Below, one piece after another: positions 3,083 to 48,892 of a stretch of DNA of 64,000 bases. Each line of letters starts with the position of its first letter. The first letter of the stretch is position 1. The position numbers were made by a program, and so were the translations under genes. This DNA comes from an uncultured Gemmatimonadaceae bacterium (GTDB lineage Bacteria > Gemmatimonadota > Gemmatimonadetes > Gemmatimonadales > GWC2-71-9): positions 11,037-75,036 of the forward strand of contig CAZQWQ010000046.1 in assembly GCA_964596925.1 (NCBI GenBank), in the 5' to 3' direction. The notes below the pieces were generated by a model. That model was not told the origin of the DNA. It did no database searches and was given only the letters and a program-made list of their open reading frames with translations.

Positions 3083-4703
3083 GGATGTAGCTCTTCCGAA
3101 GCGTCAGGGCCCAGGGGCTGCCGGTGAAGCCGTCCCCGAACCGCCAGGAGATATCGAACTCGGCGACGTCGCCGCGTACCGAGCGTGGAGACCCGAGCCG
3201 CAGCGCCAACCCCACGTCGCCACCCAGGCGCGGAGCTTCCTGCCCTGCATACCAGGCGCCCCCGTACTCGAAGTACGGCGCCACGCCGACCCCCACCAGC
3301 CCCCACAGGCCATCGCTCACCTGCACGCGGTCTTCGACCATCGCGTACACCAGGCGCGTGCCGGTGAAGGCGTGCGCCCCGAATCCGCGGGGCCCATTCT
3401 GCGTCGACCAAGGATCGAACGCCGTTCCCGGCCGGGGGGCGCGCAACGCCCCCGCTTCGAGATGCACGAGCCACGTCTGGCGCGCGAGCCGCGTACTGGC
3501 GACATCAAACGTCGCGCGCAGCTGCCCCGAGTCGAGCCCAGCCGATCCGACGACGCCGTTCGCCTTGACCCGCAGCAACGCGAGCCCCGACGGCCACAAC
3601 GCGGCGATCTGGCCCCGAAGCGTCGGCCCGAGCCCCGCGCGGCCGGCCGGATAGCCCCAGGCGCGCGGCGCGGCCCACACACCGAGGCGCAGGGCGGACG
3701 AGAGGTCCACGTCCTCGCGCCGGCCGAAGCCGTTCAGGTGCTCGAACACGCCGTATCGGACGCGTGCCGCCTCGATCCCGACGCCCACCGATCCGAACGC
3801 CGAGTAGGGAATGGAAGTCGAGCCGACCGGGGTGAAGTCCTCGCGCCGCCAGGCTGCGCCAAGCCACAGTCGGACGTAGCTCCGCGGCGAGGCGCGCAAC
3901 GCCACGCCACTCAGCAGGTCGAAGCGCAGGGTGTGTCGCTCCGAGCTGTCGGCCAGCGCGCCCCCCCGGAAGTCCAGGACGCGCTGGTGTCCCGCCTCCC
4001 CGGTGGTTGCGAGCGACCAGCGGGCATCGGCTCGATGGAATGGGCGGCCGTAGCTCCACGCGCCCAACCGGCCATCGGAGAGATCGCTGTAGGCGACGAG
4101 CAGCGGGGCATGACGCAGCAGCAGGCCCGGGCTCGCGAACTGCAGGTCGAGGGCGCTGCGGTCGGGGTTACGCCCGTAGGAGACGCTGACGTGCGTTGCG
4201 GTGCCGAGAAAGTTCCGTTCCACCAACGCGACGTTCCAGGTCGTGGACCCCGCGGCGCTCGAGAAGTTGAGCTGCGGCGAGGTGCTCCACCCGTCGGCCG
4301 TTTCGACGCGCAGCGCCAGGCGATTTCCGACCCGCAGCGTGTCGAGGCGCACCGAGCGAAACACCCCGAGCTCGCGCAGCGCCCGCTCGCTTTCGACACG
4401 CCGGGCGGAATCGAACGGCACGCCCGGGCTCACGAGGAGCAGACGTCGGATCACGGCTGGGTTCGTGGTGATGTGCAGCGCATTCCCGAGTCGGACCAGG
4501 AATCGCGGCGCACCTCCGGGAGGCTCGAACACATTGCGCGAGACGACGACCACGGTGTCGATCGTCAGGTCGGCCGGCGCGCTCAGCGCTGACCCTGGCG
4601 GTCTCGCTTGGGCTCCCAGCCCCGGCGGCGCACCGGCCAACTGCACCCACACCCCCAGACCAATCGCGAGTCCAGCGACGCGCGATCGGGGGGGGGCCGT
4701 CAC
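3075..4703 (-). CDS. POTRA/Omp85 (BamA/TamA-like) outer membrane beta-barrel protein (542 aa)
   Basis: GTG 4703 overlaps the upstream stop (GTGA); signal peptide; POTRA-like ESERALRELGVFRSV; ERNFLGT barrel entry; amphipathic strands. The ORF-track extension to 5201 is not considered real. Confidence 0.7.
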   Translation of the reverse strand: MTAPPRSRVAGLAIGLGVWVQLAGAPPGLGAQARPPGSALSAPADLTIDTVVVVSRNVFEPPGGAPRFLVRLGNALHITTNPAVIRRLLLVSPGVPFDSARRVESERALRELGVFRSVRLDTLRVGNRLALRVETADGWSTSPQLNFSSAAGSTTWNVALVERNFLGTATHVSVSYGRNPDRSALDLQFASPGLLLRHAPLLVAYSDLSDGRLGAWSYGRPFHRADARWSLATTGEAGHQRVLDFRGGALADSSERHTLRFDLLSGVALRASPRSYVRLWLGAAWRREDFTPVGSTSIPYSAFGSVGVGIEAARVRYGVFEHLNGFGRREDVDLSSALRLGVWAAPRAWGYPAGRAGLGPTLRGQIAALWPSGLALLRVKANGVVGSAGLDSGQLRATFDVASTRLARQTWLVHLEAGALRAPRPGTAFDPWSTQNGPRGFGAHAFTGTRLVYAMVEDRVQVSDGLWGLVGVGVAPYFEYGGAWYAGQEAPRLGGDVGLALRLGSPRSVRGDVAEFDISWRFGDGFTGSPWALTLRKSYILK

Positions 4704-5671: not shown

Positions 5672-5729
5672 CCTTTTCCTACGTCTTTTCTTTACGCCTT
5701 CCTCCCTTACGCTTTCTTCCTTACGCCTA
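5672..5729 (-). repeat. Right arm of the imperfect inverted repeat (4 TACG-core units)
   Basis: TACG at 5680, 5693, 5708, 5722 in pyrimidine-rich context (CCTTACGCCT); reverse complement resembles 5204-5258. Confidence 0.75.
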
Positions 5730-7070
5730 GTACAACCCGAGATATCTCTCCAACTCCCACTCACTAACTTGTCCGATATACTCCTGCCACTCCTCCCGTT
5801 TCGCCTCCACGAATCGCGCGTAGATATGCTCGCCCAGCGCCGCACGGACGACGTCATCTTTCTCGAGGCATTCGAGCGCCTCATGCAGGTCCCGCGGCAG
5901 CTCGTCGATGCGGTATTTGCGACGCTCGCGAAAGCTCATCTCGAAAATGTTCTTGTTGACCGGATCGGGCGGTACGAGCTTGCGCTCGAGGCCGTCGAGT
6001 CCGGCGGCCAGCTGCACGGCGAGCGCCAGATACGGGTTCGCCGAGGGATCCGGCATGCGCAGCTCGCACCGCGTCCCGGTGCCGCGCTTGTCGGGAATCC
6101 GCACCAACGGCGAGCGATTGCGCATCGACCACGCCACGTTGACCGGCGCCTCGTACCCCGGCACCAGTCGTTTGTAACTATTGACGAGAGGGTTCGTGAC
6201 GGGGCAAAAACCCCTCGCGTGGTCGAGTAACCCCGCGATGTAGCCCAGCGCGGCGTCCGAGAGCTCCCACCGCCCCTTGGGATCGTGGAAAGCGTTCTTC
6301 CCCTTGGCGAACAACGACTGGTGCGTGTGCATCCCGGAACCGTTCTGTCCGAAGATCGGCTTCGGCATGAACGTGGCGAGAAAGCCGTGGCGATACGCTA
6401 CATCCCGCACGATGAACCGGAACGTCGCGAGGTTGTCGGCCGTCTCCAGCGCCTCGGCGTACTTGAAGTCGATTTCGTGCTGGCCCGGTGCGACCTCGTG
6501 GTGCCCCGCCTCGACCTCGAAGCCCATCGCCACCAGGTCGCGAATGATGAGCCGCCGAATCTCCTCGGCGCGATCCACCGGCGTAAGATCGAAATAGCCG
6601 CCCTGGTCGTGCGTTTCGGTGGTCGGCGCGCCCTTGGCATCGAGCTGGAAAATGAAGAACTCGGCCTCGACGCCGGCCATCATCTCGAAGCCCAGTCGTG
6701 CGGCACGGGCAATCTGGCGTTTCAGCGCCTGGCGCGTACATCCGGCGAACGAGGTGCCGTCGGGGTTGTAGATGTCGCAGATGACCCGGGCCACTTTGCC
6801 GCCCTCATCTTCGTAGGGCAGCATGCGAAACGTGTCCAGGTCGGGCTTCAACACCATGTCCGATTCCTCGATCCGCACAAACCCTTCGATCGAGCTGCCG
6901 TCGAACATGACGTCCCCATCCAGCGCCTTCTCAAACTGGCTTTCGGGAACCTCGATGTTCTTGTTGACGCCGAGGATGTCGGTGAACTGTAGGCGCAGGA
7001 AAGCGACGCCCCGCTCTGTTGCGAGGGCGAGAATGTCCCGCTTGGTGGCGCCGGTGGTTCGTTGGGTCAT
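5727..7070 (-). CDS. glnA: Glutamine synthetase type I, GSI-alpha-like (447 aa)
   Basis: EAEFF, HHEVAPGQHEIDF, FMPKP-GQNGSGMH, YKRLVPGYEAP, ELRMPDP motifs; short form lacking the GSI-beta insertion; NIFEM at the adenylylation-loop position. Confidence 0.92.
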   Translation of the reverse strand: MTQRTTGATKRDILALATERGVAFLRLQFTDILGVNKNIEVPESQFEKALDGDVMFDGSSIEGFVRIEESDMVLKPDLDTFRMLPYEDEGGKVARVICDIYNPDGTSFAGCTRQALKRQIARAARLGFEMMAGVEAEFFIFQLDAKGAPTTETHDQGGYFDLTPVDRAEEIRRLIIRDLVAMGFEVEAGHHEVAPGQHEIDFKYAEALETADNLATFRFIVRDVAYRHGFLATFMPKPIFGQNGSGMHTHQSLFAKGKNAFHDPKGRWELSDAALGYIAGLLDHARGFCPVTNPLVNSYKRLVPGYEAPVNVAWSMRNRSPLVRIPDKRGTGTRCELRMPDPSANPYLALAVQLAAGLDGLERKLVPPDPVNKNIFEMSFRERRKYRIDELPRDLHEALECLEKDDVVRAALGEHIYARFVEAKREEWQEYIGQVSEWELERYLGLY

Positions 7071-7166
7071 GAGGAGACTCGGTGGAAGGGGCGAAAGGAA
7101 CGCGAGCGGGGACGGGCGGAGCGCAGGGTGCCCCCTGTCATCTCCGACCGTCCCCTCCGTCGCCGT

Positions 7167-8633
7167 TCAGCAGTCGTAGTACAAGAAGAACTCGTACGGA
7201 TGCGGCCGCAGGGCCACGGGGTCGATCTCCTTGGCCCGCTTATAGGCGAGCCAGGTATCGATCAGATCCTGCGTGAACACTCCGCCCTCGAGCAGGAAGG
7301 CGTGATCCGCTTCCAGCGCCGCCAGGGATTCAGCGAGACTCCCTGGCGTGTTCTTGATGTGTTTGCGCTCGGCCGGCTCGAGCTCGTACAGATCCACGTC
7401 CATCGGCTTGGGCGGCTCGATCTTGTTGCGCACGCCGTCGAGACCGGCCAGGAGCAGCGCAGCGAAGGTGAGGTACGGATTGCACGCCGGGTCCGGCGCA
7501 CGGAACTCGACCCGTTTGGTCTTCGGCGATTTCGAGTACATCGGGATGCGGCAGATCGCCGAGCGATTGCGCTGCGAATAGATGAGGTTGATCGGCGCCT
7601 CGTAGCCGGGCACCAGCCGCCGATAGCTGTTGGTGGTCGGCGCCCCGAACGCCAACACCGCCGCGGCGTGTTTGATCAATCCACCGATGTACCAGCGCGC
7701 CGACTCCGACAACAGGGCGTACCCCTTGGCATCAAAAAACAGGGGCGTCTTGTCGTTCCAGAGGCTCATGTGCACGTGCATGCCAGAGCCATTGTCCCCA
7801 TACATCGGTTTCGGCATGAAGGTCGCGGTGTAGCCATTCTGCGCGCAGACGTTCTTGACGATGTATTTGTACATCATCACCTGGTCGGCCATACGGGTCA
7901 GCGTGGTGAACCGCATGTCGATCTCGGTCTGACCGGCGGTGCCGACCTCGTGGTGGTGCACTTCGACATCGACGCCGGCCGCGATCAGTGCCAGCATGAT
8001 CTTGGAGCGCAAATCCTGCAGTTTGTCCACCGGCGGCACCGGGAAGTATCCCTCCTTGTGCCGCGGACGGTGGCCGAGGTTCGGACCGCCGTCGGCCCCG
8101 GAGTTCCAGATCCCTTCCTCGGAATCGATGTGGTAGTAGCCCTCATGCGCGTTCTGGTCGAACCGCACCGAGTTGAAGATGTAGAACTCCGCCTCGGGTC
8201 CGAAGTACGCCGTGGTGGCGATGCCGCTCTTCACGAGATAGTTCTCGGCCTTCTGCGCCACGAAGCGCGGATCGCGCGAGTAGCGTTGACCCGTCATGGG
8301 ATCGACGATGTCGCAGGTGAGCGACAACGTCGGCACCTGCAGGCACGGATCGACGAACGCGCTCGCCGGATCGGGCAGCAGCAGCATGTCGCTCTCGTTG
8401 ATCGCCTGGAATCCCCGGATCGATGAACCGTCGAATCCGAGGCCATCGGCGAACACGTCCTCGTTGAGCTCCCGGAGCGGCAGCGAGAAATGCTGCCACG
8501 TGCCCGGAAGATCACAGAACTTCACGTCCACGATCTGCACCCCTGCTTCCCGGGCGCGGCGGATCACCTCTGCGGGGGTGGCCTTGGTGCCACCCTTCGC
8601 ATCGGCCTTGCTCGGCTCCAACGTCGCGGTCAT
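7167..8633 (-). CDS. glnA: Glutamine synthetase type I, GSI-beta (488 aa)
   Basis: FDGSSIRGF, HHEVGTAGQTEID, GDNGSGMH, RVEFRAPDP, adenylylation motif DLYEL, C-terminal RPHPYEFFLYY. Confidence 0.95.
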   Translation of the reverse strand: MTATLEPSKADAKGGTKATPAEVIRRAREAGVQIVDVKFCDLPGTWQHFSLPLRELNEDVFADGLGFDGSSIRGFQAINESDMLLLPDPASAFVDPCLQVPTLSLTCDIVDPMTGQRYSRDPRFVAQKAENYLVKSGIATTAYFGPEAEFYIFNSVRFDQNAHEGYYHIDSEEGIWNSGADGGPNLGHRPRHKEGYFPVPPVDKLQDLRSKIMLALIAAGVDVEVHHHEVGTAGQTEIDMRFTTLTRMADQVMMYKYIVKNVCAQNGYTATFMPKPMYGDNGSGMHVHMSLWNDKTPLFFDAKGYALLSESARWYIGGLIKHAAAVLAFGAPTTNSYRRLVPGYEAPINLIYSQRNRSAICRIPMYSKSPKTKRVEFRAPDPACNPYLTFAALLLAGLDGVRNKIEPPKPMDVDLYELEPAERKHIKNTPGSLAESLAALEADHAFLLEGGVFTQDLIDTWLAYKRAKEIDPVALRPHPYEFFLYYDC

Positions 8634-30021: not shown

Positions 30022-30375
30022 ATGCGACCGAAACTCCATGTCCCGCCAGGGCGGTATGCCGCCCTGACTAAGGGACTCGTCGACCCTGTGCTGGACACGC
30101 CCGGCCACACGCCAAGCGCGCTCCGACGCGCCGCCCTGGCGCGAGCGGCGAGGCCGGGCGGGCCTGCGGACGGGCTACCCGCCCAGCTCGCGGGCTACGT
30201 CGATAAGGTCGCCCTGCATGCCTACCGGGTCACCGACGACGACCTCGCCGCGCTGCTGCGCGTCGACAGCTCTGAAGACGCAGTCTTCGAGATTACAGTT
30301 TCCGCGGCGCTCGGCGCCGCGCTGGCCCGGCTCGATCGCGGGCTGGCCGCCCTGCGGGGCGAGGGGTCGGCCTGA
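30022..30375 (+). CDS. AhpD-like helical protein without redox cysteines (partner of the selenoprotein)
   Basis: YVDKVALHAYRVTDDDLAALL...EDAVFEITVSAALGAA resembles the AhpD/CMD C-terminal helices; 1-nt overlap with the next gene; start uncertain. Confidence 0.7.
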   Translation: MRPKLHVPPGRYAALTKGLVDPVLDTPGHTPSALRRAALARAARPGGPADGLPAQLAGYVDKVALHAYRVTDDDLAALLRVDSSEDAVFEITVSAALGAALARLDRGLAALRGEGSA

Positions 30376-30962
30376 TGCGCCTCCGGACGGTCGAACACGG
30401 CCACCGACTGGTAGAGCGGCTCAAGATCTTCCTCATCGGCCTGATCGGCCGGCGCCGCGTCCCCGACGTCGTGAAGACGCTGCTCTATCGGCCGGAATTC
30501 TTCGGCCGCCCGATGTGCGCCTGGACCCAGGCCGTGATGCGCGGGCCATCGCCCTGGAGTGTGGGCGAGCGGGAGCTGTTCGCCGCGTTCACGTCGCGCT
30601 TGAACCAATGCGTGTTTTGAACGGGTGCTCACGGCGCGGTCGCGTCGCTGGCCCTGAACGATGACAGACTGGTCGACGCGGTGCTGGCCGATTGGCGCAC
30701 CGCGCCGATCGACACCAGACTGCGGGCGACCCTCGGCTTCCTGGAGAAGCTCACGCTCGCCCCGGCCGACGTGCGCCCCGCCGATATGGAGCCGCTCCGC
30801 GCCGCCGGCGTGAGCGACGAGGGTGTAGAGGACGCGATCCAGGTGTGCGTGCTGTTCAACATCTATGACCGGATCGCCGATTCACTCGGCTTCCACCTCC
30901 CGGAATCGGATGGGTATGCCGCGTCGGGCCGCTCGCTCATGAAGCGTGGGTATTTGCTCTAG
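30375..30962 (+). CDS. AhpD/carboxymuconolactone decarboxylase-like peroxidase, selenoprotein (CxxU; 195 aa)
   Basis: ORFs 30375..30620 and 30681..30962 share a frame and join through TGA 30618-30620: ERELFAAFTSRLNQCVF-U-TGAH, with His at the conserved position after the motif. Confidence 0.88.
30618..30654 (+). promoter_or_regulatory. Bacterial SECIS element
   Basis: 17 nt after UGA: stem GGCGC (30633-37), loop GGUC (30638-41), GCGUC (30642-46); same apical GGUC as the E. coli fdhF SECIS. Confidence 0.8.
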
Positions 30963-30977
30963 TAGCGCGCTACCCAG

Positions 30978-33572
30978 CTACGGTCGCGCTCTCGGAGCAA
31001 GCTGAGCGAGGAGCCGACCATCCAATTGCCGATACAGCTCGTGCATGTGGGTTGAGAGGCTTGCGCTGTCCAGGCTGGGCAGCCTGCCGACCTGAGCTTC
31101 AAAGACCTGGCATCTGGATGTTTGGGCGACCGCCAGGGCGAGTCCTCTCTTGGTGTCGCCTTCCCCGGGACGGTTCTGGACGGAAGGAGTCGGGCGCGCC
31201 AGCGTCACCGCCGCGCGGAAGAGCACAGCGGCGCGCTCCGGTTGGGCACGCTTCCAGGCCACGTAGCCCTTGAGGAAGTGCGCTTCCACGCTGCGACTGT
31301 GGGACCCAATCACGGCATCGAAGTGGGAGATGGCGTCGGTCAGGTTGCCCCGCATCAGCGCAATCTGGCCCAGGTGAAGCAGCGGTCCCGTCTCCTCCCG
31401 ATTGAGTTGCAGGGCTCGGCGAAACTCGCCCTCGGCCCTGGCGAGATCTCGCGGGGCGCCGGGATCCGCGCAGGCGTAGAGGTCCCCCAGTCGCGAGTGG
31501 GCCCGTGAGCTACCAGGGTTGACCTGGACCAGGCGGTCCCAGGCCAACCGAGCCTCGTCGTAGTGGCCCAGTTCGAGCTCCATGTTCCCGAGGTAGTAGA
31601 GAGCATCTTCGTGCCGCGGGTTCAGCTCCAGGGCCCGGCGGTACGCGTCCCGTGCGGCACCAATCCTCCCGGCAATGCGGTGACCGGTCGCCCCGCGATA
31701 GATCTCCCAAAACTCGCGAATCCCGGCCCGAGCGCCCATCGTGTCACGACCCGCATCGAGTGCGGCATCGTCCAGCTGGGACTCTCCTTCCGCCACGTTC
31801 AGGGTCTGGTTGGACGCCACGCCGGTCCATACCTGGCGGATGCCACTGGGCCATGTGACCACGAGGCTGTCGACCTGGGGCGTAGTGCCCAGGCCGAAGT
31901 GCTCGGTCAGATCGTTCTGCGAGAGATACGACGCCTGGGCTCCGACCTCTCGAACCTGCGTCGTGAGCCCCGCCACGACGCGGAGCTTCGCTCCGATCGC
32001 GGTGCGGTTGCTGCGGCGCCCTTCCAGCTTGACCTTGAGCCAGTGGGCGCGGTTCCCCCCATCGTTCCGGAGCAGGACCGCAGGGCCACCGTGGTTCACC
32101 ACGACGACGTCGAGATCCCCGTCCTTATCGTAATCGGCAAAGGCGGCGCCCCGCCCCACGTACGGCTGGTGGAAGTACGCGCCGCTGGCAGCTGACGCGT
32201 CGTAAAAACCGTCGTCGACACCCCGGTTCCAGAAGAGCTGAGCGGTCTCAGGGGCCAGAAGGTGAGGTGCGTCGCGTCGCTGGAAGGTGTGCCCGTTGGC
32301 GACGAAGATGTCGAGCTTGCCGTCGTTGTCGTAGTCGAAGAAGAACGTGCCCCACCCCACGAAATCCAGCGTTATCTGGCCCAGCCCGTAGCGATCCGCC
32401 TCGTCCTTGAAGTCCACCGCCGGACCGGAATGGGTGCCGGGGGATCGATGCCCGAGGTTGGTGTACAGCGCGTTCTCCTGGGCAATCCAGTGGGTGATGT
32501 ACATGTCCAGGTCCTGATCGTTATCCCAGTCTCCCACAGCCAACCCCATCGCGCTCCGGTAATCCGCGACGTGGGCGATGTGACTGATATCTTCGAACGT
32601 GCCGTTCCCCAGGTTCCTGAACAGTTGGTTGTCGGTGACGTCGTTCGCCACGTACAGGTCGGGCCAACCGTCCTCGTCGAAATCGGCCCACGCCGCCTCC
32701 AGGCTCTTCCCTTGATCGCCCAGGACGCCGGCCCGGGCGGCAACCTCAGTGAACGTGCCATCCTGGTTATTGTGGTACAGCAGGTTGCGCTCCGGCGGAA
32801 ACGCGTTGGGATTGATGCTCGCAGGGTTCTCCACATCGTATTGCGCTGCGGCCGTCGGCTCAGAGGGGCGGGAATACTTGACGTAACCGGTCACGTACAG
32901 ATCGAGAAACCCATCCCGGTCGTAATCGGCCCAGGCCACGCCCGACCAGAACCCCCGTCGTCCCCCGATGCCAGCCCTTCGGGTGCGATCGCTGAAGGTG
33001 CCATCGCCGTTGTTGTGGTAAAGAACGTTCTCACCGTACGTGGAGACGACCAGGTCGAGCCACCCGTCGTTGTCGTAGTCTGCCCACTCCGCGCCCAACC
33101 CCCAGACGCGCAGATCGACGCCGGCTTCCACGCTGATATCGGTGAACGTCCCGTCCCGGTTGTTGCGGTACAGCGCACACCGCGCCGGGGACCGGCGCAC
33201 CTCTTCGGGGGTCAGGGTGATAGGGCCAACCACGTTGACGAGGAACAGGTCCGGCCAGCCGTCGTTGTTGTAATCTCCCCATGCCGCACCGGAGCCCATG
33301 TCCTCCGGGATCTGAGATGACCGCTGCCCCCAGTAGTGGTGGAATTGGATCCCGGCTTCACGGCTCACGTCGACGAACGTGACTCGGGGATAGTCCGGCG
33401 GCAGGGAGCGCGACAATTCTGAGGTAAGCCCTTCGACCTGCTCACCGGGCCGGTACGCCGGCTCGGGTTTCCCGGTGAGAAGCACGATCGCTCCGGCGAC
33501 CGCGACGAAGCCCAGGACCAGCATTGCCGTGAGGACGAGCCGGCGTTGCCGGCGAGAGAGGCCACCGCGCAC
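30978..33572 (-). CDS. FG-GAP/ASPIC-UnbV (CRTAC1-like) protein with C-terminal TPRs (864 aa)
   Basis: N-terminal TM; repeated DYNNDGWPDLF-type motifs; SNRTAIGAK and YLSQN...HFGLG (ASPIC/UnbV); TPRs. Confidence 0.88.
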   Translation of the reverse strand: MRGGLSRRQRRLVLTAMLVLGFVAVAGAIVLLTGKPEPAYRPGEQVEGLTSELSRSLPPDYPRVTFVDVSREAGIQFHHYWGQRSSQIPEDMGSGAAWGDYNNDGWPDLFLVNVVGPITLTPEEVRRSPARCALYRNNRDGTFTDISVEAGVDLRVWGLGAEWADYDNDGWLDLVVSTYGENVLYHNNGDGTFSDRTRRAGIGGRRGFWSGVAWADYDRDGFLDLYVTGYVKYSRPSEPTAAAQYDVENPASINPNAFPPERNLLYHNNQDGTFTEVAARAGVLGDQGKSLEAAWADFDEDGWPDLYVANDVTDNQLFRNLGNGTFEDISHIAHVADYRSAMGLAVGDWDNDQDLDMYITHWIAQENALYTNLGHRSPGTHSGPAVDFKDEADRYGLGQITLDFVGWGTFFFDYDNDGKLDIFVANGHTFQRRDAPHLLAPETAQLFWNRGVDDGFYDASAASGAYFHQPYVGRGAAFADYDKDGDLDVVVVNHGGPAVLLRNDGGNRAHWLKVKLEGRRSNRTAIGAKLRVVAGLTTQVREVGAQASYLSQNDLTEHFGLGTTPQVDSLVVTWPSGIRQVWTGVASNQTLNVAEGESQLDDAALDAGRDTMGARAGIREFWEIYRGATGHRIAGRIGAARDAYRRALELNPRHEDALYYLGNMELELGHYDEARLAWDRLVQVNPGSSRAHSRLGDLYACADPGAPRDLARAEGEFRRALQLNREETGPLLHLGQIALMRGNLTDAISHFDAVIGSHSRSVEAHFLKGYVAWKRAQPERAAVLFRAAVTLARPTPSVQNRPGEGDTKRGLALAVAQTSRCQVFEAQVGRLPSLDSASLSTHMHELYRQLDGRLLAQLAPRARP

Positions 33573-35795: not shown

Positions 35796-37382
35796 ATGCG
35801 ACGCATAATGGTCGTGGCGCTCGGCGCCGCGCTGCTCACATCCATCGGCACGGTTGCCGCCGCCGCGCAGGATTGGAAGCGCGGCGCGGTGTGTTACGAA
35901 ATCTTCGTTCGCTCGTTCTCCGACAGCGACGGCGACGGGGTCGGCGACCTGAACGGGCTCATCCAGAAGCCGACTACGTCGAGGGCCTGGGCGCTCGCTG
36001 CATCTGGCTCATGCCGGTGGCCGAATCGCCGAGCTATCACGGCTACGATGTGGCGGACTATTACCGCATTGACCGGGAGTACGGCAGCAACGAGGACTTC
36101 CGTCGGCTGGTGGCCGAAGCGCACCGGCGCGGCATCCGCGTGCTGGTCGACCTGGTGCTGAACCACGCCTCGAGCGAGCACCCGTTCTTCCAGGCTGCGC
36201 TCCAGGATTCGAGCTCTCCCTACCGCCACTGGTTCCGCTGGTCCGCCACGAAACCGCCGACGACCGGTCCCTGGGGCCAGGTGATCTGGCACCATTCCCC
36301 GGTGCGCGACGAGTACTACTACGGGATCTTCTGGCATTGGGATGCCGGATCTGAACTACGAGACCGAGGCCGTCCGTGAGGAAGCGAAGCAGGTCGCCAG
36401 CTTCTGGCTCGAGGACATGGGAGCGGACGGGTTCCGTCTGGATGCGGTCCCCTACCTCGTAGAGGAGGGTGAGCGGGTAGCGAACACCCCCGGCACCCAC
36501 GCCTTCCTGCGGGAGTTCGCCGCTCACCTCCACCGCACGGCGCCCGGGACGTTCACCGTCGGCGAAGTATGGGACAGTGTGGGCTCGATGCTTCCTTACT
36601 ACCCGGACCAACTCGATGCCCATTTCGCATTCGAGCTCTCGGACGCCATCCTGGAAGCCGTGAGGACGAGCTCGGCCAGGAAACTCTACGTCGGGTATTT
36701 ACGACTCCAGGACACGTTGCCCGCCGAGCGCTGGGCGCCGTTTCTCAGGAACCACGATCAGACTCGCACGCTCACGGCATTGGGCGGGGATGTCGCCCGC
36801 GCGAAGGTCGCCGCAGCCCTCCTCCTCACACTCCCGGGCCTGCCGTTCGTCTACTACGGCGAGGAGATCGGGATGACTGGCGACAAGCCGGACGAGCGGC
36901 TGCGGACGCCGATGCACTGGAACCGCGGCCAGGCGGCGGGTTTCACCCGCGGGACGCCGTGGGAATCCCTCCAGCCGGACTCGTTCACCGCAAACGTCGA
37001 GGCGGAGGCGGCCGATCCCCGCTCGCTGCTCAACCTCTACCGCCGGTTGATCCACCTGCGGGCGGCGAACTCCGCGCTCGGCTCGGGTGTCCTGGTGCCG
37101 CTCGTGGCCAGCAACGACGCCGTGGCAGCCTATCTACGGCGCGCGGGCGATCGCGTGGTGCTGGTGGTGGCCAACCTCGGCAGGACGGCGCTCTCGGGCG
37201 TGACCCTATCCTCAGGCGGGCCCGTGCTGCCGGCGGGGCGGTATGCGGCGACCAACCTGCTCGCCGGTCCGGGTGCCGCGCCGCTACGGATCGGGTCGGA
37301 CGGGCGGATCCGGGCTTACCTCCCCCTCCGCGCGCTCGGGTCGAGGGAGAGCTATCTCTTCGAACTCTCCGGCAGGAGATAA
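35796..37382 (+). pseudogene. Secreted GH13 alpha-amylase family gene interrupted by two frameshifts (or two sequencing indels)
   Basis: Three overlapping ORFs join into one GH13: [19 protein letters not shown] / IWLMP...YHGYDV / MPDLNY, GFRLDA, VGEVW, FLRNHD. A base is missing at 35970-71 (AAG C-C GAC, expected K-L-D) and there is an extra T at 36338. Confidence 0.85.
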
Positions 37383-41924: not shown

Positions 41925-44900
41925 CTATCTCTTCGAGCTGTTGCGGGGCGGCCGGTAACGCAGCGGGCGGAGCAGCTGGAGCTCATCGTCGTTGCGCGCA
42001 ACAACTATCAAGCGGTCGCCCCCCGCCCGCCGCAGCAGCGCCATGTGCCGCACCTGGCCCTCGATCAGGAGATTCGAGGACTCGAGATCGACCGCCTCGA
42101 ACTGACCTGCCCCGTCGCCGCGCAGCAGCAGCCCATAACTCGCATCGTAGCGCCCCTGCACGGGCGTCACGCCATTAAAGTTCCCCGCGGCCAAGAGATC
42201 AGTGTGCCCGTCGCCGTCGAAGTCAGCCGCCAGCGTTGCGTAGATGGGGGCGAACTGCGCCTCGATGGGAAGCGGCTGGAAGTCGAAGCGGCCGTTCCCA
42301 CGATTGAGCGCAACGGCGTTCGAGAACTCGCGCGCCTCGAGGACGGTTGCTTGCCCCAGTTCCCCTGCCGGGAAGATGTCCTCGATGCGGCTGGCGCCGA
42401 ACGAGGCATACGAGGGGTACCGGCTGCGAAGCTGCGGCATCATGCGGACCAGCTCGTCCCGTCCCGCAAGCGGATACCGCACGCCGCCTTTGTAGAACGT
42501 GAGGATCTGCTCGAGCGCGCCGTTCTCGAAGAAGTCGCGGACGAACAGCTGGGCGGGCTCCTTTCGGGATGCCCGGATGTAGGAGTTGCGGCCGAGATTC
42601 CCCAGCACGAGGTCCTGGCGACCGTCCCCGTTGAGGTCGACGGCGGTCACGCGGTTCCACCAGCCGTTCGTGCCCGACAACCCGGCCTCCGTGGTCCGAT
42701 CCACGAACACGCCACTCTCCTGGCGAAACACTCGGACCGGCAACCACTCACCAACGACGATCAAGTCGAGCTGGCCGTCGTGGTCGTAATCGAGCCAGGT
42801 GGCCGAAGAGACCATCCCCGCCTCGACGAGCGCCGGGGCCAAGGCGGCGGTCACGTTACGGAAGTGTCCCGTGCCGTCGTTTTGCAGCAGGTGGCTGCGC
42901 GGGCTGAGACCGTACTGCCGGGAGACGACTCGGCCGCCGAGGAAGAGATCGACGTGGCCGTCGCCGTTGAAGTCGCCGGGCACGACGCAGGAGCCGTTGT
43001 CGAAGAGATCCGGGAGGGCGCCCTCGGACCGATGGAAGTTCCCCTGTCCGTCGTTGATGTACAGCCGGTCGCGGAGTGCCTCAGCGTCGCCCCAGAATTC
43101 ATTGCCGGCGCTCACGACATAGAGATCGGGATGCCCATCCCCATTCGCGTCGAAGAACGCCGCGTCCACGTCTTCGGGCAGACTGTCCGCTCGCAACACC
43201 GGTTGCCTGCTCGTGCGGAACCCACCGTCACGCCGCTGGATCAGGAGCGCTCCGGCCTGCCACTTCGCCCCTCCGACGTAGAAGTCGTCCAGCCCGTCGC
43301 CGTTGACGTCGCCGACGGCGAGGGCCGGTCCCTCGGTCGACAGCAGGTGCGGCATAAACGGCTCGCGGTCGTAGTCGAAGAACGTGTTTTCTTCGTGCTT
43401 GAAATCGATGGCGAGCTGGGTCGTCACATCCGAGAACAGCGGCTGCGCCGCCGACCGCTGCTGGTAGGCATACCGGCCGGCGGCGTCCCGCTGGGTCAGC
43501 GTGATCGTCCGGTCGGCCGGCACGTTCGTCAGGACTTGATAGCGACGATCGGGCCAGACGACGGTCAGTGAATCGATGCGCGCCGAGCCACCCAGCCCGA
43601 AATGCAGGCGGGCGTCGACGGAAGACTGGAAGCCGCGGGTGGGCATCTGTTCCAACAGCTGCCGCGTCCCCTGCTGGCTGATCATGACCTTGGCGCCGAT
43701 CCCGGCCGTATTCGCCCCGGCGCCCACGAGTTGCACGTGCAGATAGTGGTTGCCGTTGATCTCGCGGGCGCGGTTGCGGTAGATCGTCGCGGGCGCGTTC
43801 AGGTTGTTCATGACCAGATCCAGCGCCCCGTCGTTGTTCAAGTCGACGTAGACGGCGCCACTTGAGAACCCCGGCTGCGCGAGTCCCCAGGCTTGGGCCT
43901 CGTTCGTGAACGTCAGGTCTCCGTTGTTGTGATACGCATAGTTGGACAGGGGGATCTGGGGCATTTTCTGCAGCAACGTGAGGTTCTCCAGAGTGATGCC
44001 TCTCGCCAGTGACGCCTGGACCGCCTCGTTGCCCACGTAGTTGATGTAGTCCAGGTCGTTCGGGCGGCGATAGATCCCGTTGGTGATGAAGAGGTCCTTC
44101 CGGCCGTCGTTGTCCAAGTCCGCGAACAGCGGGGCCCAGCTCCAGTCGGTGGCCGAGACGCCAGCCAAATACCCGATCTCGCTAAACCGTGTCGTCCCTC
44201 CCACGGGGCCGCGGTTGAGTTGCAGGGTGTTGCGGGTGTATTGCGGATGATAGCCGGCCTTGAGCCGCAGATTGAAGACGTTGAAGCCCTCGGCATTGGC
44301 CGACGTCTTCAAGATCTCCTCCCGCTCCGGCAGCATGTCGAGGACCATCAGGTCCGGCCGGCCGTCGTTGTTGAAGTCGGCGGCGTCGACGCCCATCGAG
44401 AACCGGCTGGTGTGCCCCGTGGCCGTGGCGATCGACTCGGTGAACGTGCCGTCGCAGTCGTTGACGTAGAGGAAGTCGTTCTCCTGAAAGTCGTTGGCGA
44501 TGTAGAGGTCGGGGCAGCCATCGAGGTTCAGGTCGCTTGCGACGACGCCGAGCCCGTACCCTTCCACGCCACCGTAGATGCCGGCTTGCTCACTGACGTC
44601 CACGAAGTGGCCGCCGTCGTTCCGAAAGAGTCGGTCTCCCGCCTTCGCGTTGCGCTCCGTGCGGCTCGTGCTCGGGCTGATCGCGCGCTCAGTGTGGGTC
44701 GAGTTGTTCAGGAGGTACATGTCCAGGTCGCCGTCTCCGTCGTAGTCGAAGAACGCGGCCTGCGTGGAATAGCCGACATGCTCGAGCCCGTATGCCTGCG
44801 TCTGGTCGGTAAAGGATCCGTCACCGTTGTTGATGTAGAGGACATTGTGTCCGCGCAGATGGAGGTAGCTGATGGCGGAGACATAGATGTCGAGGCGGCC

Positions 44901-45287
44901 ATCGCCATTGACGTCGGCCATCGCGACGCCGGTGGTCCAACCGGGAGGGCCTGCTACGCCGGCGCGCTCGGTGATGTCCTCGAACCGGAACTGCCCCTTG
45001 TTGCGATACAGCTTGTCTGGCCCCAAGTTCGACGTGAAGTACAGGTCCGACAACCCGTCGCCATCGATATCGCCCGCGGCGACGCCACCGCCGTTGTAGT
45101 AGTACAGGAAATTCAGGATGTTGAACGAGGTATCTTCCGGCAGCGCGTTGACGAACGCCACGCCGCTGGCTTCAGGGGTGACGAGATCAAAGAGCGGGGG
45201 ACCCGCGCCAGTGCGTTCACAGCTCGCGCATGACACCGCGCTGGTGAGAAGGACCAATCCCGACAGATGACGATACAAACCGGGCAT
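41925..45287 (-). CDS. FG-GAP/VCBS repeat ASPIC-UnbV (CRTAC1-like) lipoprotein (1120 aa)
   Basis: Lipobox AVSC; many DxDxDG repeats; central RGFQSSVDARLHFGLG; second propeller. Confidence 0.9.
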   Translation of the reverse strand: MPGLYRHLSGLVLLTSAVSCASCERTGAGPPLFDLVTPEASGVAFVNALPEDTSFNILNFLYYYNGGGVAAGDIDGDGLSDLYFTSNLGPDKLYRNKGQFRFEDITERAGVAGPPGWTTGVAMADVNGDGRLDIYVSAISYLHLRGHNVLYINNGDGSFTDQTQAYGLEHVGYSTQAAFFDYDGDGDLDMYLLNNSTHTERAISPSTSRTERNAKAGDRLFRNDGGHFVDVSEQAGIYGGVEGYGLGVVASDLNLDGCPDLYIANDFQENDFLYVNDCDGTFTESIATATGHTSRFSMGVDAADFNNDGRPDLMVLDMLPEREEILKTSANAEGFNVFNLRLKAGYHPQYTRNTLQLNRGPVGGTTRFSEIGYLAGVSATDWSWAPLFADLDNDGRKDLFITNGIYRRPNDLDYINYVGNEAVQASLARGITLENLTLLQKMPQIPLSNYAYHNNGDLTFTNEAQAWGLAQPGFSSGAVYVDLNNDGALDLVMNNLNAPATIYRNRAREINGNHYLHVQLVGAGANTAGIGAKVMISQQGTRQLLEQMPTRGFQSSVDARLHFGLGGSARIDSLTVVWPDRRYQVLTNVPADRTITLTQRDAAGRYAYQQRSAAQPLFSDVTTQLAIDFKHEENTFFDYDREPFMPHLLSTEGPALAVGDVNGDGLDDFYVGGAKWQAGALLIQRRDGGFRTSRQPVLRADSLPEDVDAAFFDANGDGHPDLYVVSAGNEFWGDAEALRDRLYINDGQGNFHRSEGALPDLFDNGSCVVPGDFNGDGHVDLFLGGRVVSRQYGLSPRSHLLQNDGTGHFRNVTAALAPALVEAGMVSSATWLDYDHDGQLDLIVVGEWLPVRVFRQESGVFVDRTTEAGLSGTNGWWNRVTAVDLNGDGRQDLVLGNLGRNSYIRASRKEPAQLFVRDFFENGALEQILTFYKGGVRYPLAGRDELVRMMPQLRSRYPSYASFGASRIEDIFPAGELGQATVLEAREFSNAVALNRGNGRFDFQPLPIEAQFAPIYATLAADFDGDGHTDLLAAGNFNGVTPVQGRYDASYGLLLRGDGAGQFEAVDLESSNLLIEGQVRHMALLRRAGGDRLIVVARNDDELQLLRPLRYRPPRNSSKR

Positions 45288-45370
45288 CGAGACTGACCAC
45301 CATTTCCGCAGGAGGCGCCAGCGTGGGCAGACTCACCACGAACAACACGACGGCGCACATCACGAAGGCA

Positions 45371-48300
45371 GTGAAAGCGAAGTGGGCGCAGTATAGTGCA
45401 TCGCCGGCCCTGCGGCAAAGGGCGCTCGCCATCTCGCTTGGCGCGACGCTGGTCTTCGCTGCGTATGGCTGCCGGTCGAAGCCGGTCGACCAACAGGAAC
45501 TCCTCACGGCTCATTACCTCGGGCTCACCGACCTCGAGCGGGGCCGGTTGCCGGAAGCGGAAGTGCAATTCAAGAGGGTCGTGACACTCGCACCGAGAGA
45601 TCCGCTCGGATACGCGAACCTCGGCCTCACCTATTTGCGCGGCGGCCGTTATGCGGACGCCGAGGCCCAGGTGCGTCGCGCTCGGCGACTGAATCCGGCG
45701 AGTCCCGAAATCGGGCTCATCGCCGCCAAGCTCTATGCGCTCACGGGGCGATTGGCCCAAGCGCGCGAGACGCTCGAGGAGCTTCGGCACGACGCGAAGG
45801 TGCTGTACGCGCTCGCCGAGCTAGAGGCGGCGCAGCAGGCGGACAGCGCCGCCGTCCGCCGCCACGAGGATCGGTTGCGGGAGGTTCTCGGCCTGGCGCC
45901 GGCCAATCTCGCCGTCCGGCTCAAGCTGGTGGGTGTGCTCGTGCGCCGTGGTGAGGCCGACAGCGCGGTCCAGCACCTCGAAGAGGTGCGTCGTATTCGT
46001 CCAGAGCCGCCGCAAGAAGCAAGGCCGCATCTCGACGCAGCCCTCCGACACCTGCGGGCCGGCAGGCTCGCGCTGGCGCAGATTCCGCTCGATCGCTTCC
46101 TGCACCTCATGGAGCTTACCGCGCCGTATCAGGCGTCGCTGCATGACGTACAATGGATCGAGGGACCACTCGTTGGACGACCAGTGCTGGCGTTCAACCC
46201 GCAGACGGTGATCACCATGCGTGGGCTCATTCCCCTGAGCCGGACGTCCGACGTGCGCTTCACGGACGTGACGGGTGAGGCCGGTCTGTCCGACGGTGGA
46301 ACAGTGCCCACGGCGCTCGCCGTGGGCGATCACGACGGCGACGGCGCGGACGACCTGTTCGTCTCGGTCTCGTCACGCGATCCACCCCGGTCCGAAGGTC
46401 GTCTGTACAGGGTGCGCGGCGGCTTTGTCGCGGATGTCACGGCGGGAACGGGTCTCTCGCTGCCGACCGGCGCCGCATACGCGACGTTCGCCGACTTCGA
46501 CAACGATGGCTGGCTCGATCTATTTGCCATCGGCGGCGATGGCCGGGGTTACCTGCTGCGCAACGATGGGAGCGGCAAATTCGACGACGTCACGGCCACC
46601 GCCGGAGTCGCCGACGTCGGGGGTGCCCGAAAGGCGTTGCTCGTCGATCTCGACCATGACGGCGACCTCGATTTGCTGCTCGTCGGCGGAGCGACGAATC
46701 GTTTTTACCGGAACAACCTCGACGGCACCTTCACGGAGGGCGCGGGCGCCGTGGGTCTTCAGGGCGCCTCTCCAGGTTGGGATGCGGCGACCGGCGATCT
46801 CGATGGCGACGGGCGCATCGACGTGTTCGTGACCAGCCCGGATGGCGCCGACGCACTCTACCAAAACACCGGATTTCGAGGATTTCGGGACGTGACCGCG
46901 GCGAGCGGACTCGCCGCCAGTCGGGCTTCCAGCGCGGTCGCCGTCGGCGATTACGACAACGACGGCGTGTTGGACATCTTCGTGCTGCGCACGGATGACG
47001 GCGAGGCCATGCTCTGGCACAACGCGGGGAACGGCACGTTCTCGAGCGATCGACGGTCTGTCGATGCCTTCCGTCGACTGCGCGGCGTCGGAGAAAGCGC
47101 TGAGTTCGTGGACTACGACAACGACGGCTGGCTCGATCTCTTCGTCGCGGGGCAGCGCGGCGTGCTGCTGTTTCGCAACAATCGTACCGGTCGATACGAA
47201 GACCGCACCGCCCTGCTCCCAACGACGCTGGTCGCGGGTGGCGCAGCCACCGCGATCACCGTCAGCGACGTAGACGGCGACGGCGACCAGGATCTGTTCG
47301 TGGCCGACTCCGCCGGTGTCCATTTGCTCCGCAACGACGGAGGCAATGCCAACTTGGCCATGCAGGTGCAACTCTTCGCCCTCCGTACGGGCAGCGGCAA
47401 GAACAACAATTTCGGCATCGGTGCGACGATCGAGATGCGCGCGGGGGAGATCTACCAGACGCGCGTCGCCACCGGACGTGTCACGCACTTCGGCTTGGGG
47501 CCGCACCTCAAGGCCGACGTGCTGCGCGTGCAATGGCCCAATGGCGTTCCGCAGACCACTTACTTCCCGGGAACCGACCAGGACGTCCTCGAGCTCGAAC
47601 AGCTCAAAGGATCGTGCGCGTTCCTCTATACATGGGATGGGAAGCGATACCGGTTCGTGACCGACGTGATGTGGCGCAGCGCGTTGGGCATGCCGCTCGG
47701 CATCATGGGTGGCAGCCGTAGTGCCACGTACGCCCCGGCTGGGGCGTCGCAGGAGTATTTACGGATCCCCGGCGACGCGCTCCAACCGCGACATGGCCGC
47801 TACAGCCTCCAGGTCACGGAGGAATTGTGGGAGACTGCGTATCTGGATGAGATCAGACTCCTCGCTGTGGATCACCCCGACAGCGTCGAGATTTTCGTGG
47901 ACGAGCGTTTCGTCCCTCCGGGTCCGGTTCGGCTGCGGCTGTTCCAGGCGGTGCGTCCTCGACCTCCCGTCTCGGCTATCGACGATCGTGGTGAGGATGT
48001 GCTGGCAGCGCTGCGCGAGAGGGATGATGTGTACGTGTCGAACCTCACGCCGACCCACTACCAGGGGTTGGTCGAACCGCACGACCTCGTCCTCGATCTA
48101 GGCGAGGACGCGGGTCGCGCTGGTACCTTTCTTTTCCTTCGCGGCTGGATCTATCCGACCGACGCGAGCATCAACGTCGCGGTGTCACAGCAGACACGCG
48201 TGAGAACGCAGATGCCATCGCTCGAGGTCCGCGACGCACAGGGGCGATGGACGACCGCGATCCCCAGCATCGGCTTCCCGTCCGGGAAGGACAAGACGAT

Positions 48301-48892
48301 CGTGATTGGCCTCGCGGGAAAGTTCCCGACGAAAGACCATCACGTGCGCATTCGCACGAACATGCAGATCTACTGGGACCACGCCTTCACGTCGCGCGAT
48401 GCCCCGGCCAGTCCGGTCCACATCGCGCCGTTGCAGCCCGCCTCAGCGGACCTGCATTTCCGGGGCTTCTCACGCATGTATCGGCGTGGCGGCCGGTACG
48501 GCCCCCACTGGTTCGCCTACGAAGACGTCAGCAAGGATTCTCCGTGGCGACCTATCGAGGGGGCGTTCACGCGATTCGGCGACGTGCTACCGCTGCTGCG
48601 GAGCGCCGACGACATGTACGCTATCATGGCGCCGGGCGACGAAGTCACAGTCGAATTCGACGCCGCCTCAGCGAGCACGCCTCCGCCGGGCTGGAGGCGC
48701 ACGTTCCTCCTCTATAGCGACGGCTGGATCAAGGACGCGGACCTGAACACCGCGTTCGGCAATACCGTCGAGCCGCTCCCATTCCACGCAATAGAGGCAT
48801 ACCCGTACGCGCCAGGTGAATCCTACCCGACCGAATCGGTACACCAGCGATACCGTCGGGAGTACAACACGCGGCTCGGCAAGCGGCGCTGA
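45371..48892 (+). CDS. TPR + FG-GAP + ASPIC-UnbV lipoprotein with a large C-terminal GSC-start domain
   Basis: Lipobox AYGC, TPRs, DxDxDG repeats, HFGLG, then GSCAFLYTWDG domain; start uncertain (45323 or 45371). Confidence 0.85.
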   Translation: MKAKWAQYSASPALRQRALAISLGATLVFAAYGCRSKPVDQQELLTAHYLGLTDLERGRLPEAEVQFKRVVTLAPRDPLGYANLGLTYLRGGRYADAEAQVRRARRLNPASPEIGLIAAKLYALTGRLAQARETLEELRHDAKVLYALAELEAAQQADSAAVRRHEDRLREVLGLAPANLAVRLKLVGVLVRRGEADSAVQHLEEVRRIRPEPPQEARPHLDAALRHLRAGRLALAQIPLDRFLHLMELTAPYQASLHDVQWIEGPLVGRPVLAFNPQTVITMRGLIPLSRTSDVRFTDVTGEAGLSDGGTVPTALAVGDHDGDGADDLFVSVSSRDPPRSEGRLYRVRGGFVADVTAGTGLSLPTGAAYATFADFDNDGWLDLFAIGGDGRGYLLRNDGSGKFDDVTATAGVADVGGARKALLVDLDHDGDLDLLLVGGATNRFYRNNLDGTFTEGAGAVGLQGASPGWDAATGDLDGDGRIDVFVTSPDGADALYQNTGFRGFRDVTAASGLAASRASSAVAVGDYDNDGVLDIFVLRTDDGEAMLWHNAGNGTFSSDRRSVDAFRRLRGVGESAEFVDYDNDGWLDLFVAGQRGVLLFRNNRTGRYEDRTALLPTTLVAGGAATAITVSDVDGDGDQDLFVADSAGVHLLRNDGGNANLAMQVQLFALRTGSGKNNNFGIGATIEMRAGEIYQTRVATGRVTHFGLGPHLKADVLRVQWPNGVPQTTYFPGTDQDVLELEQLKGSCAFLYTWDGKRYRFVTDVMWRSALGMPLGIMGGSRSATYAPAGASQEYLRIPGDALQPRHGRYSLQVTEELWETAYLDEIRLLAVDHPDSVEIFVDERFVPPGPVRLRLFQAVRPRPPVSAIDDRGEDVLAALRERDDVYVSNLTPTHYQGLVEPHDLVLDLGEDAGRAGTFLFLRGWIYPTDASINVAVSQQTRVRTQMPSLEVRDAQGRWTTAIPSIGFPSGKDKTIVIGLAGKFPTKDHHVRIRTNMQIYWDHAFTSRDAPASPVHIAPLQPASADLHFRGFSRMYRRGGRYGPHWFAYEDVSKDSPWRPIEGAFTRFGDVLPLLRSADDMYAIMAPGDEVTVEFDAASASTPPPGWRRTFLLYSDGWIKDADLNTAFGNTVEPLPFHAIEAYPYAPGESYPTESVHQRYRREYNTRLGKRR

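Follow-up and report, generated by a model that had tools for sequence, protein, structure and literature searches.

The DNA analysed here is a 64,000-nucleotide stretch (the window) from an uncultured Gemmatimonadaceae bacterium, covering positions 11,037 to 75,036 of contig CAZQWQ010000046.1 in assembly GCA_964596925.1, and our subject is an AhpD-like gene at 30375–30962 on its forward strand. At this locus a single 195-codon reading frame opens with an ATG at 30375 and closes with a TAG at 30960–30962. Its one internal stop is a TGA at 30618–30620 (codon 82), after which 113 further codons follow in frame. The TGA sits in the motif SRLNQ-C-V-F-TGA-T-G-A-H-GAVAS, that is, C79-V-F-TGA-T-G-A-H86, and the peptide spanning residue 82 of the predicted selenoprotein reads ...LNQCVF-U-TGAHGAVASLALNDDR, with U standing for selenocysteine (Sec). 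The ATG overlaps the TGA stop of an upstream open reading frame (ORF) of 117 residues (ATGA), and a small hairpin lies within the coding sequence past codon 82. On the evidence set out below we regard it as highly probable that 30375–30962 is one intact gene for an AhpD-type selenoprotein, in which the UGA at codon 82 is predicted to be read as Sec.

A mechanical ORF list cuts this frame into two pieces, of 81 residues (30375–30620) and 93 residues (30681–30962). A preliminary description of the same DNA, made from the letters alone, had expected standard pipelines to report two fragments, and an identical public metagenome contig bears this out: its gene calls are exactly the same 81- and 93-residue pieces.

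The interrupted frame encodes an AhpD-like protein

With Cys placed at the TGA, the translated frame scored 107.5 bits against NCBIfam TIGR01926 (the 'peroxidase-related enzyme' family of the AhpD/CMD superfamily; curated cutoff 81.8), residues 27–173 aligning to profile positions 26–173 of 178. The match to the Pfam CMD domain (PF02627) was 22.0 bits against a gathering cutoff of 23, and this domain is faint or absent in many full-length database homologues too. Membership in either of two other AhpD-superfamily families was ruled out, the scores being far under the cutoffs: 38.6 bits versus 175 for NF041238 (AhpD_rel_CFYUT), with only the C-terminal 115 residues aligning to the 357-position model, and 15.9 bits versus 310 for NF053654 (GroundWater_YciW).

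Among solved structures the nearest was 6k40 (annotated AhpD; E = 3.9e-27), with 2oyo at 1.7e-24, the matches running over residues 55–179. Further solved relatives are 2pfx, 2prr and 3c1l, and all five chains have Cys at the codon-82 column. The family score and the structural matches agree with the initial assignment of the product to AhpD-like proteins, and we predict that it adopts the AhpD-like all-helical fold. Full-length homologues with Cys at codon 82 (Cys forms) are single proteins of 192–199 residues that span both called fragments. The single frame, the TIGR01926 score, the length of these homologues and the similar ratio of nonsynonymous to synonymous substitution rates (dN/dS) on either side of the TGA all point to a complete gene of 195 codons plus TAG.

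The predicted active-site signature, E67-x11-C79-x-x-U82-x3-H86, occupies 30573–30632 (+), with E67 at 30573–30575, C79 at 30609–30611 and H86 at 30630–30632. In a 34-sequence family alignment the columns of E67, C79, position 82 and H86 are invariant. We take this spacing to be that of Glu118, Cys130, Cys133 and His137 in Mycobacterium tuberculosis AhpD, in which the nucleophile is the second Cys (Cys133), the position held here by codon 82.

Codon 82 is TGA in most gene copies

A protein-database search returned 636 homologues, and the residue at column 82 was read in the 120 that were listed: 102 had Cys, 15 had 'W' and two had 'R'. Trp or Arg at this position in homologues had been named beforehand as grounds for rejecting Sec, and both classes were examined at the DNA level. 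The 'W' proteins (P0001, P0002, P0003, P0006, P0017 and 10 others) are Joint Genome Institute (JGI) calls on short contigs; in the two of the 15 whose DNA was checked (L001, position 725, and L002, position 846) the codon is TGA, not TGG, which means that the JGI calls were made there with a code in which TGA is Trp. One such call, P0006, is a 313-residue 'protein' in which two TGAs have been read through and which consists of the upstream partner (see below) together with the enzyme. The two Arg codons are an AGA, one base from TGA, in L158 (codon at 1575–1577, hairpin intact) and a CGC in L003 (position 2487). Both variants retain a hairpin in the SECIS register, and either a recent loss of function by mutation or a read error in a single metagenome contig could account for them.

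Two genome scans gave a different picture of the family from that in protein databases. In the first, which used the window protein as the query against species-representative genomes, 70 loci were recovered, mostly from Gemmatimonadales metagenome-assembled genomes (MAGs) and with a best identity of 93%; in 62 of them TGA stands at exactly codon 82. The phyla and orders with TGA forms are Gemmatimonadota, Acidobacteriota, Desulfobacterales, Myxococcota, Chloroflexota, Actinomycetota and Planctomycetota. The second scan, of GTDB species representatives, was seeded with Cys forms only and found 514 relatives by a single peptide pattern; among the best 80 of these 514 loci, 77 of 78 motif matches carry TGA; protein databases are therefore biased towards Cys forms for this family. 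In the 129 distinct gene copies read at the DNA level (duplicates removed), codon 82 is TGA in 122, TGC in five, CGC in one and AGA in one, and TGG was found in none. Alignment to Cys homologues, the check proposed at the outset, therefore supports a Cys-equivalent position: Cys fills column 82 in most of the listed proteins and in all the PDB relatives, and TGC encodes it in the five Cys forms read as DNA.

A neighbour-joining tree with 118 Sec forms gave about 13 switches between Sec and Cys; it is a rough distance tree with no support values and is indicative only. Such repeated switching fits the published dynamic exchange between Sec and Cys. The largest all-Sec clade holds 77 of the 118 Sec forms and consists mainly of Gemmatimonadales sequences. 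A second, more divergent clade of Sec paralogues (...RELIAAFTS.RN.C.F-U-..SHAAVAA...) was also seen, at L031 (positions 4822 and 7248), L069 (2734) and L072 (10157). Its members have no upstream partner gene, and on one Longimicrobiales contig the two types lie 2.4 kb apart.

A conserved hairpin follows the TGA

The preliminary description had also noted a hairpin with a GGUC loop 17 nucleotides (nt) after the UGA. We recovered this element, which resembles the upper stem-loop of a bacterial Sec insertion sequence (SECIS), at 30632–30647 (+): a 6-base-pair (bp) stem (30632–30637 with 30642–30647; arms CGGCGC and GCGUCG) closes the loop GGUC at 30638–30641. The stem begins 11 nt and the loop 17 nt past the UGA, which is the canonical SECIS spacing, and the hairpin overlaps the codons for His86-Gly-Ala-Val-Ala-Ser91.

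Comparative folding of 66 segments, each comprising the TGA plus 45 nt in a gap-free alignment, showed the element to be conserved and covarying. The RNAalifold consensus was exactly the 6-bp helix and no other, with 97.4% of its cells paired. Compensatory double changes are seen at three of the six pairs (C-G replaces G-U in 11 cases and U-A does so in one; U-A replaces C-G in four; A-U replaces G-C in two), and the covariation score was unmatched by any of 500 shuffles. When the 3′ arm was slid by 1–3 nt, pairing fell to 16–69%.

The same constraint is seen in codon choice. Synonymous codon entropy is 0–0.5 bits at codons +5 to +9 from the TGA, versus 1.3–1.8 bits at four-fold sites elsewhere in the gene, the codons used being GGC (56 of 56), GCG (60) or GCA (8), GTC (60) or GTT (8), GCG (68 of 68) and TCG (47 of 52). 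Of the 122 TGA copies, 113 have the loop GGUC and nine have AGUU. At the protein level, Ala-Val-Ala occupies positions +6 to +8 in all 122 Sec forms, compared to 51 of the 102 Cys forms. Positions +5 and +9 covary, the combinations being G/S, A/A, T/V and V/T, in each of which the first two codon bases are complementary, with seven exceptions among the 122 Sec forms (G/A four times, A/V three times). Judged from these patterns, the putative SECIS places a visible constraint on the residues just after the active site.

A lower-stem extension, pairing 30622–30629 with 30650–30656 (30622–30656, +), is present in the minimum-free-energy fold of the window sequence. Over 63 distinct sequences it is about 35–80% paired and RNAalifold drops it; a longer SECIS with a conserved lower stem was rejected, and we keep this weak extension as possible only. 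In two related loci (L091 and L114) ARAGORN calls an 82-nt 'tRNA-Val(cac)' at 3180–3261, inside the selenoprotein gene and across the TGA and hairpin; this call is almost certainly a false positive produced by local stem-loops.

A Sec-specific synthase gene co-occurs with the TGA gene

If the UGA is decoded as Sec, the host should possess the corresponding machinery. A plasmid search with E. coli SelD gave no Gemmatimonadota match and led to a selD-selA-selB operon on the 816-kb Miltoncostaea oceani plasmid NZ_CP064357.1 (L159; 3908–4474 and 6001–10134 of the locus). This operon lies 1.5 kb from a gene of the carboxymuconolactone decarboxylase (CMD) family. With the aligned SelA sequences of Miltoncostaea and E. 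coli as the query, 12 Gemmatimonadota selA loci were recovered; neither selB nor selD was found within 4 kb of selA at these 12 loci. A scan seeded with one Gemmatimonadota selA then placed selA in 30 Gemmatimonadales/Gemmatimonadota assemblies, 24 of which also hold the TGA gene with its hairpin. The Gemmatimonadales lineage has at least the Sec-specific synthase. A literature search on selenium use in Gemmatimonadota turned up nothing useful.

Several observations weigh against decoding of codon 82 as Sec. The 64-kb window contains no tRNA, tRNA-Sec included, and Pfam scans of 36 of its ORFs detected no SelA, SelB or SelD domain. Likewise, tblastn with E. coli SelA, SelB and SelD together with ARAGORN found nothing in 0.96 Mb, and then in about 1.46 Mb, around related loci. 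The co-occurrence in relatives covers, of the four sel genes, selA only, and the closest relative (DATBLG01, 93% identity) is not among the selA matches, which were obtained with exact 8-residue patterns in incomplete MAGs. As for the hairpin, single-sequence folding gave z = 0.12 relative to shuffles; since the folding energy is no better than that of shuffled sequence, the case for this element rests on the comparative data. Two of the six stem pairs are forced by the Ala-Val-Ala peptide, and of the five Cys-form genes, for one (L157, Mycobacterium) a weaker hairpin is possible in the same register; the other four make 3–5 of the six pairs. Part of the pairing is thus a by-product of the protein sequence. 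Finally, Rfam gave no match at gathering score in the window, and around the site returned only unrelated families at chance level, with E above 1.

Alternative readings of the TGA codon

The alternative that survives best, and which we nevertheless consider improbable, is that the UGA is recoded as something other than Sec, either through near-cognate decoding as Trp, Cys or Arg or through a lineage-specific reassignment like those of genetic codes 4 and 25. Such a reading could draw on the Trp that the JGI caller put at this codon in several homologues and on the two natural variants with Arg codons, and Sec insertion is itself a prediction. Reassignment, however, is ruled out by the use of TGA in the window: it is the commonest ordinary stop, ending 15 of the 29 Pfam-supported genes, and the TGA at codon 82 is the only internal TGA among these 29, so that the genetic code is the standard one. 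In alignments this codon matches the catalytic Cys and not a Trp, and leaky read-through would not need a conserved, codon-constraining hairpin with the spacing and loop of the E. coli fdhF SECIS. The presence of selA alongside the gene in 24 related assemblies likewise speaks for Sec.

A scan of the window for other selenoprotein genes left 30375–30962 as the only region that qualifies. Two other same-frame TGA junctions were considered as read-through candidates and proved to be ordinary gene ends. A naive read-through scan flags the junction between two tandem glutamine synthetase genes at 5727–8633 (−) that share a frame and are separated by one TGA; this is an ordinary gene end.

That the locus is a pseudogene, in which mutation of a Cys (TGC/TGT) or Trp (TGG) codon produced the TGA, leaving the 81-residue fragment as the sole product and a decaying remnant downstream, is very improbable in our judgement. 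The two fragments reported by ORF callers and the lack of visible Sec machinery in the window would suit it. Decay is contradicted by the 122 of 129 distinct copies, from several phyla, that share the TGA at codon 82, and by the state of the sequence beyond it: every complete copy keeps 110–130 open codons past the TGA, and among close relatives with unsaturated dS the downstream dN/dS is 0.10–0.26, compared to 0.09–0.20 upstream in most. These ratios indicate that the codons past the TGA are under purifying selection, and there is no sign of an overlapping same-frame gene that would account for the downstream conservation. A Trp ancestor is opposed by the lack of TGG in any of the 129 copies.

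We give equally little credence to two truly separate small genes, of 81 and 93 residues, that share a frame by chance. Both fragments are called in public assemblies, yet the 192–199-residue Cys homologues cover both parts and the PDB homologues cross the junction. Moreover, the 60 nt between the ORFs (30621–30680) encode conserved in-frame residues, and the putative GTG start at 30681 falls inside a conserved helix region. A sequencing or assembly error at the TGA is the least credible of all, given that the contigs of four independent freshwater-sediment runs show zero variant letters across the region, which indicates that the TGA is not an artefact of assembly, and that the same codon recurs in more than 120 other assemblies. 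The early proposal of a TGA at the second Cys of an AhpD CxxC motif, with coding sequence continuing downstream, is upheld by the single 195-codon frame and its TIGR01926 score, and an intact selenoprotein gene remains the reading we strongly favour.

The upstream partner gene and genomic surroundings

The ORF directly upstream, at 30022–30375 (+), encodes 117 residues and appears to be a truncated AhpD-family paralogue that retains only the C-terminal helices and has no CxxC motif; its stop overlaps the start of the selenoprotein gene. By hhalign the partner aligns to residues 121–171 of the selenoprotein family (93% probability, E = 3e-7), its profile matches AhpD 6k40 in the PDB at 7e-5, and 18 of 21 partner members give weak TIGR01926 matches. 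Of 65 Sec-form loci, 60 have a partner homologue immediately upstream, and in three of the remaining five there is no upstream room for one. A homologue is also found upstream of the Cys-form loci L154, L155 and L157, Mycobacterium included. Besides the window copy, the partner is listed at L002, L004–L066, L154, L155 and L157. At L048, in a Gaiellaceae MAG, it is fused in frame to the enzyme. In-frame stops reported by tblastn in the partner homologues of L011, L015, L018, L025 and L073 were discounted, as they are located upstream of the real start codon. The ATGA stop/start overlap suggests translational coupling; on this arrangement the selenoprotein gene would be co-transcribed, and is probably translationally coupled, with its 117-residue paralogue. 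The simplest reading of the partner is that of a truncated paralogue forming an assembly with the enzyme.

The flanking genes encode a Kup K+ transporter, an LPG-synthase-type membrane protein, an FG-GAP/ASPIC/TPR protein and a multihaem cytochrome, and belong to other transcription units. Pfam scans of the window revealed no ahpC, lipoamide-system gene or other obvious candidate for a redox partner near the gene. The window as a whole encodes four large proteins with FG-GAP/ASPIC(UnbV) repeats, of which two also have TPR regions, at 30978–33572 (−), 41925–45287 (−), 45323–48892 (+) and 58502–60169 (−). Beside them lie an extracytoplasmic function (ECF) sigma factor, a Ser/Thr kinase and several starch/maltodextrin genes (GH13, GH77, GH97, MFS). 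An alpha-amylase family gene at 35873–37382 (+) is seemingly split by a frameshift near 36342–36379: on Pfam PF00128 the ORF at 35873–36379 covers positions 26–152, and the ORF at 36342–37382, in a different frame, covers positions 156–445.

Proposed mechanism and significance

In the mechanism that we propose, 30375–30962 would encode a single thiol/selenol oxidoreductase of AhpD type, 195 residues long and belonging to the TIGR01926 'peroxidase-related enzyme' subfamily. The 6-bp, GGUC-loop hairpin inside the coding sequence would recruit a SelB-type elongation factor carrying Sec-tRNA(Sec), Sec would be inserted at UGA codon 82, and translation would continue to the TAG at 30960. The Sec would then occupy the second position of the E-x11-C-x-x-C-x3-H signature, equivalent to the nucleophile of M. 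tuberculosis AhpD. Most likely the enzyme alternates between a selenolate state and one in which Sec forms an intramolecular selenenylsulfide with Cys79, and it may reduce peroxide or a peroxiredoxin-type partner. The 117-residue paralogue (30022–30375) probably assembles with it.

A bolder joint reading can be put forward only tentatively, and we think it rather doubtful as a whole. It would make the Sec forms a distinct two-protein system, an obligate hetero-oligomer of the enzyme with its coupled truncated paralogue lacking the redox motif, in which the SECIS has reshaped the catalytic helix and which dominates in soil and sediment Gemmatimonadales yet is largely hidden in protein databases. 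As part of this, the peptide past the active site may be frozen as H-(G/A/T/V)-A-V-A-(S/A/V/T), with residue pairs covarying only through codon base-pairing. If true, it would offer a clear case from nature in which covariation in a protein is dictated by an RNA structure.

In practical terms, a predicted functional enzyme of 195 residues is at present annotated either as two hypothetical fragments or as a protein whose catalytic residue is wrongly given as Trp. The gene implies the use of Sec by the host and by many other Gemmatimonadales, and through such use selenium supply could affect oxidative-stress defence in sediments and soils. The hairpin, the peptide constraint and the partner gene together offer a compact model for the co-evolution of a coding-region SECIS with an active site. 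The value of the analysis lies in correcting a systematic mis-annotation and documenting predicted Sec use in Gemmatimonadales; two smaller additions are the conservation of the partner gene and a peptide covariation imposed by the SECIS.

Comparison with known systems

M. tuberculosis AhpD, a two-lobed protein of 177 residues encoded beside ahpC, shares the Glu-x11-Cys-x-x-Cys-x3-His signature with the predicted selenoprotein. In sequence, however, the two are very distant, and only the partner-gene profile reaches the M. tuberculosis chains (PDB 1knc, 1gu9, 1me5 and 1lw1), at E of about 0.6. The closest solved relatives are instead 6k40, 2oyo, 2pfx, 2prr and 3c1l (E = 3.9e-27 to 8e-17), proteins of 188–197 residues whose CxxCxxxH region aligns with that of the window protein. 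These solved TIGR01926-type proteins have Cys where the window gene is predicted to have Sec, and most are annotated merely as 'uncharacterized peroxidase-related protein'.

The predicted SelB target is similar to the SECIS of E. coli fdhF, read from the K-12 genome. In both, the element is part of the coding sequence, the loop is GGUC and the stem starts at nt 15 counted from the U of the UGA (11 nt past the UGA). The upper stem described here is a perfect 6-bp helix that includes a G-U pair, whereas that of fdhF has a bulged U; the loop falls at nt 21–24 here versus nt 22–25 in fdhF, one nt closer because the bulged U is missing. The lower stem is not conserved in the present element.

The selenoproteins of NF041238 and NF053654 have the AhpD superfamily and the CxxU idea in common with the window protein, the scores of which lie far under their cutoffs. 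The closest likeness is to the AhpD-like CxxU selenoproteins (COG2128), first described in 2005 from the Sargasso Sea metagenome with 27 sequences (PMC1088965). As 'AhpD-like 1', with 299 sequences, they were among the most abundant selenoprotein families of the Global Ocean Sampling (GOS) data (PMC2398784), and a 2026 review of prokaryotic selenoproteomes places the family under TIGR01926 with the motif CxxU (PMC13188914). The window gene resembles this published family in its TIGR01926 assignment, in the predicted Sec at the second position of CxxU, in a bacterial-type SECIS directly past the UGA and in its widespread Cys homologues. It differs in setting: the published sets are mostly marine metagenome reads, whereas the present gene belongs to a sediment and soil clade of Gemmatimonadales. 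Since both the selenoprotein family and the decoding mechanism are already established, current understanding is not overturned; the gene, as we read its sequence, is a member of a selenoprotein family known since 2005, and its recognition is an annotation fix and not new biology.

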